Positions 27,350 through 31,735 of a stretch of DNA of 64,000 bases are shown in pieces. Each line of letters begins with the position of its first letter. Position 1 is the first letter of the stretch. Under the pieces are notes generated by a model that worked only from the letters and a program-made list of their open reading frames with translations, was not told where the DNA came from and did no database searches. The stretch comes from Rickettsiales bacterium (lineage in GTDB: Bacteria; Pseudomonadota; Alphaproteobacteria; UBA8366), in the NCBI GenBank assembly GCA_038131165.1, contig JAYPOZ010000011.1, positions 4,121-68,120 on the forward strand, given 5' to 3'. A program made the translations under genes and the position numbers.

Positions 27350-27360
27350 GGGCGCGATTA

Positions 27361-27382
27361 TTGTTTGTCTACATACAAATTA
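27361..27382. promoter_or_regulatory. 22-bp AT-rich box TTGTTTGTCTACATACAAATTA (copy 1), candidate MarR operator
   Basis: It lies in the 52-nt gap between the marR stop (27402) and the FAD-subunit start (27349). It is the exact reverse complement of 31661-31682. It contains the dyad TTTGT-N6-ACAAA. Confidence 0.55.
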
Positions 27383-27401
27383 CGGCAATCCTGCCAGGGG
27401 T

Positions 27402-27833
27402 TCAAGACAGCTTCCTCAGGAGTGCCAGAAAAGTCTTTCGCTCGGCGGCGGTCAGCGGCTCGAGGGTGCGTTCTGTAATGGCCATGGCTTCGGGGATGAC
27501 GGCAGCGATTTCCGTCTCGCCCGCCGGAGACAGTGACCAGAGGCTGCGCCGGCGGTCTTCCGGGTCCGGGCGCGCCTCGATCAGGCCGCGTTCGCTCAAT
27601 CGGCGGACGACCCCTTGCACGGTGGCCGGGTCCATGGCCGTCAGGCGCCCCAGCAGGTTCTGCGAGACTTCGCCTTCATCGCCGATCTTGATCAGAACGG
27701 CGAACTGCATCGGCGTGAGCTGCTGGGAACCGAGGCCGTCGAAGAAGATGGCCGCATGCCGCTGGTTGGCCCGGCGCAGCAGATGCCCGACCTGATCTTC
27801 CAGTCGGTATGGGGGTTTCGCGGGCTTTGCCAT
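27402..27833 (-). CDS. MarR-family transcriptional regulator
   Basis: The last 143 codons of ORF 27402..29195, from ATG 27833. Motif LTPMQFAVLIKIGDEGEVSQNLLGRLTAMDPATVQGVVRRLSERGLI (winged HTH), followed by RRSLWSLSPAG. Confidence 0.85.
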   Translation of the reverse strand: MAKPAKPPYRLEDQVGHLLRRANQRHAAIFFDGLGSQQLTPMQFAVLIKIGDEGEVSQNLLGRLTAMDPATVQGVVRRLSERGLIEARPDPEDRRRSLWSLSPAGETEIAAVIPEAMAITERTLEPLTAAERKTFLALLRKLS

Positions 27834-27841
27834 TTCTCGCT

Positions 27842-29584: not shown

Positions 29585-31641
29585 GACGCTTCGCCTATTT
29601 CGATCAAAAGATTGCCGTCGCGGTCGACCTCGACGCGGCAGCCGGGCTCGATCACGGTCGTGGTGTCCATTTGCTCGACGATGGCGGGTCCTTCGAAGGC
29701 CCCGCCGATGGGCAGGCGGTCGCGGGTATAGATCGCGGTCTCGCGCCAGCTGCCATCGAACCAGACCCGGCGCGTCCCGTCCCGTGCCGCTTCGACGGTC
29801 GCTTCGCGTGCCGATCCGTCCATGATCCGTCCGAGATCGAAGTCCGGACGGCGCCCGATGACCGAGGTCTTCAAATTGACCAGATTCGCGCGGATTTCGG
29901 GCAATGCCACTTGGAACCTTTCGAAATAGGCCGCCTCGAAAATACGCTGGATTTCCTCTCTCGGCGTGTCGAGCGCCGGTATGGGGATCGAAATCAGATG
30001 CGTCTGGCCGATAAACTGCATGTCCGCGCCGTGCAGGACGCGGATATCCTCGATCGCAATCGTTTCGGAATCGATCAGATGTTTGCCGTCTGCAATCTGT
30101 GCCGCGAGCAGGGTCTGGACTTCTTCGAAATCCACTTGGTCGAGCGGCCGATTGACGGTGCGCACGAAATCGTGTCGGACATCGGCCACGACGCAACCGA
30201 GGGCGTTGGTGATGCCGGGGCGGGTCGGAATCAGAATGCGCGGGATTCCAAGTTCCCGGGCCAGGGCGACCGCATGCAGGGGACCGGCGCCACCGAAGGC
30301 GAACAGCGTGAAGTCGCGCGGATCATGTCCTTTCGATATCGAGACAATCCGTATCGCGCCGGCCATTCGGTCGTTTGCAACCCGAATGATGGCGCCGGCC
30401 GCGGTGTCGATATCCAGCCCGAGCGGTTGCGCGATTTTGGTGTCGAAAACCGCCTGGATGGCGTCGATCGCGGGGGCGGTTTCGGTGGAGAGAAGCTTTT
30501 CGGGATTGAGGCGCCCGAGGACGAGGTTGGCGTCGGTGATCGTCGGCGCGTCTCCGCCCCGGCCATAGCAGATCGGCCCGGGCGTGGCGCCGGCGCTCTC
30601 CGGTCCCACCCGCAGGAGGCCGGCATCGGTCACCCCGGCGATTGAACCGCCGCCCGATCCGATGGTTCGCACGTCGACCATCGGCACATGGATCGGCATG
30701 GCATATTCGACATCCAGCTCGTTGCTGACCGCCGGCACCGCGTCCAGGATCAAGGCGACGTCGGTCGAGGTGCCGCCCATGTCGTAGGTGATCAGATTGT
30801 CGATGCCGGCGCGTTTCGCCGCGTGCGCCGCGGCCATGACGCCCGAAGCCGGGCCCGACATGACGGTTTTGGCGGCTTCCCGGTCGACCAGGCGGGCCGA
30901 CACCATGCCGCCGTTGCCGTTCATCACCAACAGGTCGCGGCCGAACCCTTCGGCCGTGAGCTCGTTCTGCAGCCGGTCGATGTAGCGATGCAGGATCGGG
31001 CGCACGGCGGCATTGACGGAGGCGGTGACGCCGCGCTCGTATTCCCGGTATTCGGACAGCAATTCGTGGCCGGCGGTGATGTAGTCGTTGGGCCAGATGC
31101 CGCGCAGGATTTCCGTTGTCCGCTGCTCGTGCGCGGGGTTCGCATAGGCGTGCAGATAATGGACGACGACGGATTCGCAGCCGAGGCGCAGAAGCTCGCG
31201 GGCGGCCTGCGCGACCCCGTCCTCGTCGAGCGGGATGACGACATTGCCCGCGGCGTCCATGCGTTCGGCCACCTCGAGGCGCAGATCGCGCGGGATGACG
31301 GGTTCGAAGACGCCGGACATGCCGTAGGGTTGGGGGCGCGTGCGCCGGCCCACTTCGATGACGTCGCGAAAGCCCTTCGTGGTGATCATGCCCGTCTTGG
31401 ACAATTTGCGTTCGAGCACCGCATTGGTCGTTGTCGTCGTGCCGTGAACGATGGCGCCGATGGCGGAGAGGTCGACGTCCGTCTCGCGCAGCGCCGCGAG
31501 GACGCCGAAGGCCTGGTTTTCGACGGTCGTCGGCGTTTTCACGACGCGGACACCTTCCGGCGTGACGAGCAGCAGGTCGGTAAAGGTGCCGCCGACGTCG
31601 ATTCCGGCGATGACGGAATGGTCGGATGCGGAGTGGGACAA
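29581..31641 (-). CDS. hyuA: hydantoinase A/oxoprolinase-family ATPase subunit
   Basis: 686-aa ORF with a TTG start preceded by GAGG. Motifs IAGIDVGGTFTD, TYDMGGTSTDV and FGGAGPLHA. Confidence 0.9.
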   Translation of the reverse strand: MSHSASDHSVIAGIDVGGTFTDLLLVTPEGVRVVKTPTTVENQAFGVLAALRETDVDLSAIGAIVHGTTTTTNAVLERKLSKTGMITTKGFRDVIEVGRRTRPQPYGMSGVFEPVIPRDLRLEVAERMDAAGNVVIPLDEDGVAQAARELLRLGCESVVVHYLHAYANPAHEQRTTEILRGIWPNDYITAGHELLSEYREYERGVTASVNAAVRPILHRYIDRLQNELTAEGFGRDLLVMNGNGGMVSARLVDREAAKTVMSGPASGVMAAAHAAKRAGIDNLITYDMGGTSTDVALILDAVPAVSNELDVEYAMPIHVPMVDVRTIGSGGGSIAGVTDAGLLRVGPESAGATPGPICYGRGGDAPTITDANLVLGRLNPEKLLSTETAPAIDAIQAVFDTKIAQPLGLDIDTAAGAIIRVANDRMAGAIRIVSISKGHDPRDFTLFAFGGAGPLHAVALARELGIPRILIPTRPGITNALGCVVADVRHDFVRTVNRPLDQVDFEEVQTLLAAQIADGKHLIDSETIAIEDIRVLHGADMQFIGQTHLISIPIPALDTPREEIQRIFEAAYFERFQVALPEIRANLVNLKTSVIGRRPDFDLGRIMDGSAREATVEAARDGTRRVWFDGSWRETAIYTRDRLPIGGAFEGPAIVEQMDTTTVIEPGCRVEVDRDGNLLIEIGEAS

Positions 31642-31660
31642 TACAGCCTCGTCAGGACAT

Positions 31661-31682
31661 TAATTTGTATGTAGACAAACAA
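31661..31682. promoter_or_regulatory. 22-bp AT-rich box (copy 2, inverted), candidate MarR operator/promoter region of the hyuA operon
   Basis: TAATTTGTATGTAGACAAACAA lies 20 nt upstream of the hyuA start. It is the exact reverse complement of 27361-27382. Confidence 0.55.
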
Positions 31683-31735
31683 AATATTTCGATCGGTCGG
31701 CCCTGGCAAGAGGCTTCCGGTCGCGGGGGCGGGCG

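Follow-up and report, generated by a model that had tools for sequence, protein, structure and literature searches.

Two copies of a 22-bp box are predicted operators of the MarR-family regulator encoded between them in an alphaproteobacterial nicotinate-type gene cluster

Gene organization of the hyuAB-marR locus

We analyzed a 64,000-nucleotide stretch of DNA, referred to as the window throughout (contig JAYPOZ010000011.1, positions 4,121 to 68,120 of the forward strand; Rickettsiales bacterium, GenBank assembly GCA_038131165.1), in which an AT-rich box of 22 bp is present twice, in inverted orientation, around the genes hyuA, hyuB, and marR. Here, we present the two copies as predicted operators of the MarR-family regulator encoded between them. 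The genes of the locus are arranged as follows.

33334..31736, minus strand: Mur-ligase-like gene, upstream of box 2
31641..29581, minus strand: hyuA, TTG start with GAGG 5 nt upstream; Pfam Hydantoinase_A
29584..27842, minus strand: hyuB, ATGA start/stop overlap with hyuA; Pfam Hydantoinase_B
27833..27402, minus strand: marR, 143 aa, last gene of the hyuA-hyuB-marR unit
27349..26489, minus strand: flavin adenine dinucleotide (FAD) subunit gene, first gene of the second unit, after box 1
26492..23724, minus strand: fused 2Fe-2S/molybdenum (Mo) large subunit gene
23724..22201, minus strand: gene for a 507-aa 6-hydroxynicotinate reductase (Hnr) homologue without a Pfam domain
18336..27349, minus strand: the second transcription unit as a whole (FAD subunit, 2Fe-2S/Mo subunit, Hnr homologue, UPF0280, nadC, and a PhnN-nucleotide phosphorylase fusion), whose extent we infer from short or overlapping gene gaps

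HyuA and HyuB form a hydantoinase/oxoprolinase-type ATP-dependent lactamase pair, with a caprolactamase-like NCBIfam match below cutoff. On Neorhizobium and Sulfitobacter plasmids, homologues that share 62-69% identity with the 507-aa protein carry the annotation 6-hydroxynicotinate reductase. MarR is encoded next to genes for nicotinate catabolism, namely those of the Mo hydroxylase and the Hnr homologue. A cluster of this kind has been described as the Azorhizobium/Eubacterium-type nicotinate pathway (PMC3511419). The Hnr-type clusters of Azorhizobium caulinodans and Bradyrhizobiaceae SG-6C share the hydroxylase, the 6-hydroxynicotinate reductase, and conserved unknown proteins with the window; however, that report describes no regulator or operator, whereas here a MarR protein and a site are linked to the cluster.

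The box is exact and occurs twice in the genome

We located the box, TTGTTTGTCTACATACAAATTA, at 27361-27382 on the plus strand (box 1) and, as its exact reverse complement, at 31661-31682 on the minus strand (box 2). Box 1 lies between marR and the FAD-subunit gene and starts 12 positions from the ATG of the latter (11 nt intervening); box 2 starts 20 positions upstream of the TTG of hyuA (19 nt intervening). Both placements agree with the initial annotation of this DNA. In a repeat search the pair appeared as 22-nt arms with 100% complementarity, 4278 nt apart, and was the sole perfect inverted pair in the 26-33 kb interval of the window. The identity ends at 22 bp, beyond which the flanks of the two copies diverge.

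The initial annotation had judged a 22/22 match unlikely to arise by chance and had proposed a genome-wide search for further copies. We found no match to the box in 100 dinucleotide-preserving shuffles of the window, and the 4.82-Mb genome (62% G+C) contained no third copy even when up to three mismatches were allowed.

The box contains an 18-bp near-palindrome that overlaps promoter-like elements

Each box consists of an 18-bp core and four further bases: box 1 is the O-FAD core plus TAAT, which belongs to a -10-like hexamer, and box 2 is the O-hyuA core plus ATTA. The cores and the promoters that they overlap are as follows.

31665..31682, minus strand: predicted operator O-hyuA, core TTGTTTGT-CT-ACATACAA, an exact match that is invariant in the hyuA-upstream alignment of four same-genus genomes
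27361..27378, minus strand: predicted operator O-FAD, core TTGTATGT-AG-ACAAACAA in minus-strand reading, conserved as a block when the marR-FAD intergenic regions of six genomes are aligned
31681..31709, minus strand: predicted sigma-70-type promoter of hyuA-hyuB-marR, -35 TTGCCA (31709-31704), 17-nt spacer, -10 TATTTT (31686-31681)
27377..27405, minus strand: putative internal promoter of the FAD-subunit operon, read from the sequence, -35 TTGAAC (27405-27400, sharing bases with the marR stop codon), 17-nt spacer, -10 TAATTT (27382-27377)

The initial annotation had described the dyad of the box as TTTGT-N6-ACAAA. Those letters are present; however, the register is wrong, because pairing is stronger about a different axis that is common to the relatives and falls between box positions 9 and 10. 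In a comparison of 14 sites, pairing averaged 7.4 of 9 positions about the position 9/10 center versus 4.6 about the N6 center. The true dyad is therefore an 18-bp near-palindrome, TTGTTTGT-N2-ACAWACAA (8-2-8), in which 7/9 positions pair in the window and 8/9 in several relatives. Its half-site centers are 10 bp apart, the spacing expected for a MarR dimer, which reaches two successive major grooves of DNA. Classical MarR-family operators, such as those of OhrR at ohrA and of MarR at marO, are 16-20-bp (pseudo)palindromes that are bound by a winged-helix dimer, lie over the -10/+1 region, have AT-rich flanks, and mediate autoregulation. The window sites likewise fall within this size range and overlap promoter elements of the gene that each would regulate. 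In kind they show nothing unusual beside the classical operators; what sets them apart is that the two sites are exact reverse complements over 22 bp.

We then scored the genome with a matrix built from the sites of relatives alone. Both window sites reached 31.6 bits, while the runner-up in the genome reached 20.8 bits and was inside a coding region. We rejected two candidates as additional regulon members. A match on contig C50 lies within the coding region of a membrane protein, and a palindrome outside the window at C17:26074-26091 (TTGTATGTACAAGTACAA, 19.5 bits) has a different dyad, TTGTA-TG-TACAA. The C17 palindrome is itself intergenic, between genes of an adrenodoxin-reductase-type fpr-like protein and a 2-oxoacid:ferredoxin oxidoreductase alpha-like (korA-like) protein, right after a TTGACG hexamer.

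The hyuA promoter, TTGCCA-N17-TATTTT, was called by a promoter scan with 9/12 matches, and in the hyuA-upstream alignment of relatives both CTTGnnAG and the -10/operator block were invariant. The internal hexamers before the FAD-subunit gene, TTGAAC-N17-TAATTT, recurred with the same spacing in four relatives (G007, G006, G005, and G002). Variant promoter-like arrangements that keep the 17-nt spacing were found in G001 (TTGATT-N17-TAAATT) and G012 (TTGCAA-N17-TATTAT); G001 retains its arrangement though the C-terminus of its marR differs. At both window promoters, the operator core opens with the final two bases of the -10-like hexamer, an overlap that suggests repression by promoter occlusion.

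The palindromes might instead act in RNA, as a hairpin in a 5' untranslated region or as a terminator or attenuator between marR and the FAD-subunit gene. Any DNA palindrome can fold as an RNA hairpin, and a weak terminator-like hairpin with a T-rich tail does lie at 27396-27383 on the minus strand, between the marR stop codon and box 1 (TGGCAGGATTGCCG followed by TAATTTGTAT). We regard an RNA role as highly improbable, since this hairpin is not conserved in relatives, the folding energies were no better than those of shuffles (z -0.59 and -0.64), and no Rfam match was found at E<=1. In addition, a hairpin with a 2-nt loop on an A-U-rich stem of 8 bp is not stable, and the expected transcription start falls inside the palindrome.

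The site follows marR through changes of gene order

We located MarR orthologues in 22 of 61 related genomes and retrieved 19 loci, 16 of which kept the order marR, FAD subunit, Mo subunit, Hnr, UPF0280. The box was conserved at both intergenic positions in same-genus genomes. The hyuA-upstream site reads TTGTTTGTCTACATACAA there, and the marR-FAD site reads TTGTTTGT-(AG/GA/AA)-ACAAACAA, a perfect 8-2-8 palindrome in 4/5 same-genus relatives. In both intergenic alignments the invariant islands were the box, the hexamer that precedes it, and a -35-like CTTGnnAG. When we searched same-genus and marR-bearing relatives for TTGTTTGTNNACAAACAA with no more than one mismatch, nearly all matches were at the marR cluster. 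A few 1-mismatch matches were found elsewhere, in unrelated and mostly AT-richer genomes that also matched the control pattern.

Where the gene order differed, the site stayed with marR (loci L033 and L034-36). In G012, a genome of a related genus (L033; contig C14, oriented locus 9419-14536), the order is marR, site, hyuA, hyuB, FAD; its single site stands behind TTGCAA-N17-TATTAT, with none before the FAD gene, where the hyuB-FAD gap is 18 nt. In G042, G058, and G038, marR abuts the FAD gene, and the sole site is upstream of hyuA. Genomes with the genes in one transcription unit thus carry one site, and, since the number of sites tracks the number of transcription units, the apparent bracketing of hyuAB-marR amounts to two co-directional units that start with the same near-palindrome. 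Neither the inverted orientation nor the bracketing has a function in itself.

A perfect 22-bp inverted repeat around a 4.3-kb module of three genes could also mark the ends of a mobile or invertible cassette, with the boxes as terminal inverted repeats or recombination sites. The exact identity of the boxes, asymmetric positions and flanks included, goes beyond what an operator consensus needs: it takes in an A changed to T in one half-site, as well as the central dinucleotide and four bases in the flanks, and at some of these positions the site pairs of relatives are not identical. However, we found no transposase or recombinase gene between the boxes and no target-site duplication in the flanks (aaatatt versus taatcgc). 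Single-unit relatives have one site, the orientation of the module is constant in all relatives, and the box has two genomic copies only, so that a cassette is a very remote prospect. The extra identity of the two window sites could reflect recent copying, gene conversion, or chance in AT-rich flanks.

In three further genomes (loci L037-L039 in G050, G031, and G035), MarR orthologues with 54-57% identity are encoded directly after an EamA-like membrane protein gene, and neither a hydroxylase cluster nor the operator motif was found within 19 kb of them. G031 and G035 carry hnr elsewhere in the genome.

The site co-occurs with MarR across Alphaproteobacteria

We extended the comparison to the class with 27 further marR loci from other families of Alphaproteobacteria. 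Pooling all loci with a marR-to-FAD gap of more than 40 bp (n=31, 5.7 kb in total) and counting as a site any match with at most three mismatches to TTGTTYGYNNRCRAACAA, we found a site inside the gap in 26/31 loci versus 0.11 expected from the background rate of the genome that holds the window. A second site was present upstream of marR in at least three loci, making two sites that flank marR a recurrent layout. Distant loci and two annotated plasmids carried a TTGACA-type -35 box just upstream of the site. On the Neorhizobium plasmid CP030828 (L127), the site is just downstream of the TTGACA box and marR is divergent from hnr; on the Sulfitobacter pontiacus plasmid NZ_CP049345 (L128), the site directly follows its TTGACA box. 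In a 401-genome sample, MarR and Hnr occurred together in 48 genomes, whereas 15 had only Hnr and 14 only MarR, so that MarR was linked to site and cluster in 48/63 Hnr-positive genomes.

As a negative control, we used nine FAD-SL-Hnr-UPF0280 clusters from genomes scored as MarR-less. None of the nine had a site with three or fewer mismatches upstream of the FAD gene (26/31 versus 0/9, Fisher p = 7e-6). Two of them showed a 4-mismatch look-alike just after a TTGACT box, and at a lower threshold a MarR with 45-46% identity turned up in both genomes, encoded a few kb away from the cluster. In the remaining seven genomes, we detected no MarR homologue at E<=1e-12, and the best FAD-upstream match had 5-6 mismatches. 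The occurrence of the site thus follows that of the presumed cognate regulator (26/31 with MarR versus 0/7 MarR-less).

These comparisons bear on two other explanations. The boxes might be operators of an unlinked transcription factor, with the neighboring MarR regulating something else. The class-wide sites show a GTATAC-like central core, which we take to resemble motifs of other regulator families. However, marR is the sole regulator gene consistently beside the site across changing gene orders, and the site is absent from 7/7 MarR-less clusters and present in degenerate form in the two genomes with a diverged MarR; we therefore consider an unlinked factor improbable. Slightly less probable still is that the boxes are core promoter only (extended -10, discriminator, and initially transcribed region), conserved for RNA polymerase. 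Each box does overlap a -10-like hexamer, and its position relative to the -35 is conserved. Promoters need no symmetry, though, and here palindromic symmetry is kept at 16/18 positions while the central dinucleotide varies; moreover, the two sites are oppositely oriented relative to transcription, and the motif is absent before the same genes in MarR-less genomes.

We also observed differences in the genes around these distant sites. In L128, an amidohydrolase gene (3169-4359) is divergently adjacent to the operator, and in L127 hyuA and hyuB lie downstream of hnr (12713-16506), whereas they are upstream in the window. This suggests that the ring-opening step is filled by different enzymes, with non-orthologous replacement of an enamidase by HyuAB.

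The MarR protein keeps the ligand residues of BpsR

The 143-aa window protein belongs to the MarR family, with matches above cutoff to PF12802 (MarR_2, 1.3e-13) and PF01047 (MarR, 5e-11), and it matched 21 solved MarR structures. One of these is BpsR of Bordetella bronchiseptica (6PCO/6PCP), a homologue that aligned at E 1.6e-28 over 137 residues (query 7-143 to chain residues 13-149 of 6pcp_A). BpsR contacts 6-hydroxynicotinate through Tyr15, His23, Arg26, and His32 (PMC6837509). These residues align to Y9, H17, R20, and H26 of the window MarR, so that all four are common to both proteins, and the window genus and L033-L036 retain them as well. The closest solved structure, PDB 2NNN ("Probable transcriptional regulator", E 1.3e-39), is nearer to the window MarR than BpsR is and lacks two of the four ligand residues (His23 to Phe, His32 to Tyr). 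Outside the window (C5:19994-20401), the same genome encodes another MarR paralogue that shares 37% identity with the window MarR.

Like BpsR, the window MarR is encoded beside genes of nicotinate catabolism, and we propose that it acts as repressor at two promoters and is released by the first pathway intermediate. The BpsR pathway is of the NicC/NicX type, whereas that of the window is reductive and of the Hnr type, with a Mo hydroxylase, a 6-hydroxynicotinate reductase, and HyuAB. The window further differs from the BpsR system in that the hydroxylase genes are placed under the operator and the regulator gene stands at the end of a catabolic operon. NicR of Pseudomonas putida KT2440 is, like the window MarR, a MarR-type regulator at nicotinate catabolic operons, where it acts as the repressor of the operons nicC and nicX (PMC10269826, PMC6837509). 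NicR lacks the 6-hydroxynicotinate residues of BpsR (PMC6837509), whereas the window MarR has them; a separate regulator, NicS, controls the nicAB hydroxylase genes of P. putida. The BpsR report also cites the OhrR-ohrA structure (PMC6837509).

Neither the BpsR structure paper nor a Burkholderia NicR paper gave an operator sequence, and a literature search for NicR/NicS operators returned nothing usable. A de novo count of dyads across 80 betaproteobacterial BpsR loci yielded only palindromes of coding sequences. By eye, we saw GTGTACAC or CGTATACAC cores upstream of Burkholderia bpsR homologues, and motifs like GGGTGTACACTC, AGCGTATACACT, and AGCGTACACACT recurred approximately 40-450 nt upstream of bpsR in Burkholderia, Paraburkholderia, and Caballeronia (L101, L119, L091, and L077). 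These Burkholderia-type motifs, which have a GT-N2-AC core in common with the window operator, may be a BpsR-type site.

Discussion

We consider it very probable that both boxes are operators of the MarR protein encoded between them, each placed on the start of one of two promoters. This reading, which the initial annotation had also put forward, draws on the conserved islands in the intergenic alignments, the uniqueness of the box in the genome, the movement of the site together with marR, and its co-occurrence with MarR orthologues. The proposal that hyuAB and the hydroxylase genes form one regulon is likewise favored, because the same site stands at the start of both transcription units. 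In the model that we envisage, one site would serve the promoter of hyuA-hyuB-marR and the other that of the operon for the FAD subunit, the Mo hydroxylase, and the 6-hydroxynicotinate reductase. A bound MarR homodimer would cover approximately -8 to +11, including the expected transcription start, and would block RNA polymerase at both promoters. As marR is the last gene of the hyuAB-marR unit, it would repress itself through O-hyuA. The likely inducer is 6-hydroxynicotinate, which the hydroxylase would make from basal expression; it would open the MarR dimer and release it from both promoters, as in Bordetella BpsR.

Several observations weigh against this model or limit its reach. The 18-bp motif was not enriched in the 80 BpsR loci, where a matrix scan gave six weak matches; BpsR loci without the motif mean that operator specificity is not transferable from BpsR. 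The equivalent of His32 is Ala in more distant alphaproteobacterial orthologues, and with this fourth ligand residue lost the inducer may differ among family members. The recognition helix and the half-site do not change in clean step: TVQGVVRR occurs with TTTGT and TSQGVtQR mostly with TTCGC, a suggestive pattern that L045 breaks, and we did not use the correlation as evidence. The internal promoter that the initial annotation suggested before the FAD-subunit gene has 17-nt-spaced hexamers that recur in six genomes; however, it is weak, with a -10 that matches at 3/6 positions, and fell below the threshold of the promoter scan. The FAD-subunit gene also lacks a recognizable Shine-Dalgarno sequence (27350-27360, …ACAATAATCGCGCCCATG), as it does in same-genus relatives. 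An internal promoter at this place, if real, would give the FAD-subunit transcript a leader of just ~20-25 nt.

Overall, the pair of boxes is most likely a case of ordinary, well-conserved gene regulation, a BpsR/NicR-like repressor with its operators rather than a new type of element, and it leaves the understanding of MarR repressor action unchanged. More tentatively, and stopping somewhat short of calling it probable, we suggest that the sites belong to an undescribed, class-wide regulon for Hnr-type nicotinate degradation in Alphaproteobacteria, in which a BpsR-related MarR uses its own operator, TTGTTYGY-N2-RCRAACAA, distinct from the betaproteobacterial BpsR site, and in which the operator-promoter was copied before hyuAB in the window genus. 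If so, the perfect match of the two sites over 22 bp would stem from recent copying or from gene conversion between them, and there would be regulon-level evidence for the ATP-dependent HyuAB lactamase as the ring-opening enzyme, in place of the amidohydrolase, possibly enamidase-like, that is encoded beside the Sulfitobacter cluster.

For this uncultured Rhodospirillaceae-type bacterium, the analysis offers a testable model with one repressor, two promoters, and a probable inducer. A single predicted regulon that holds hyuAB together with the genes of the Mo hydroxylase and the 6-hydroxynicotinate reductase supports the assignment of HyuAB to a nicotinate-type pathway, and with the operator consensus this regulon can be annotated in many Alphaproteobacteria.

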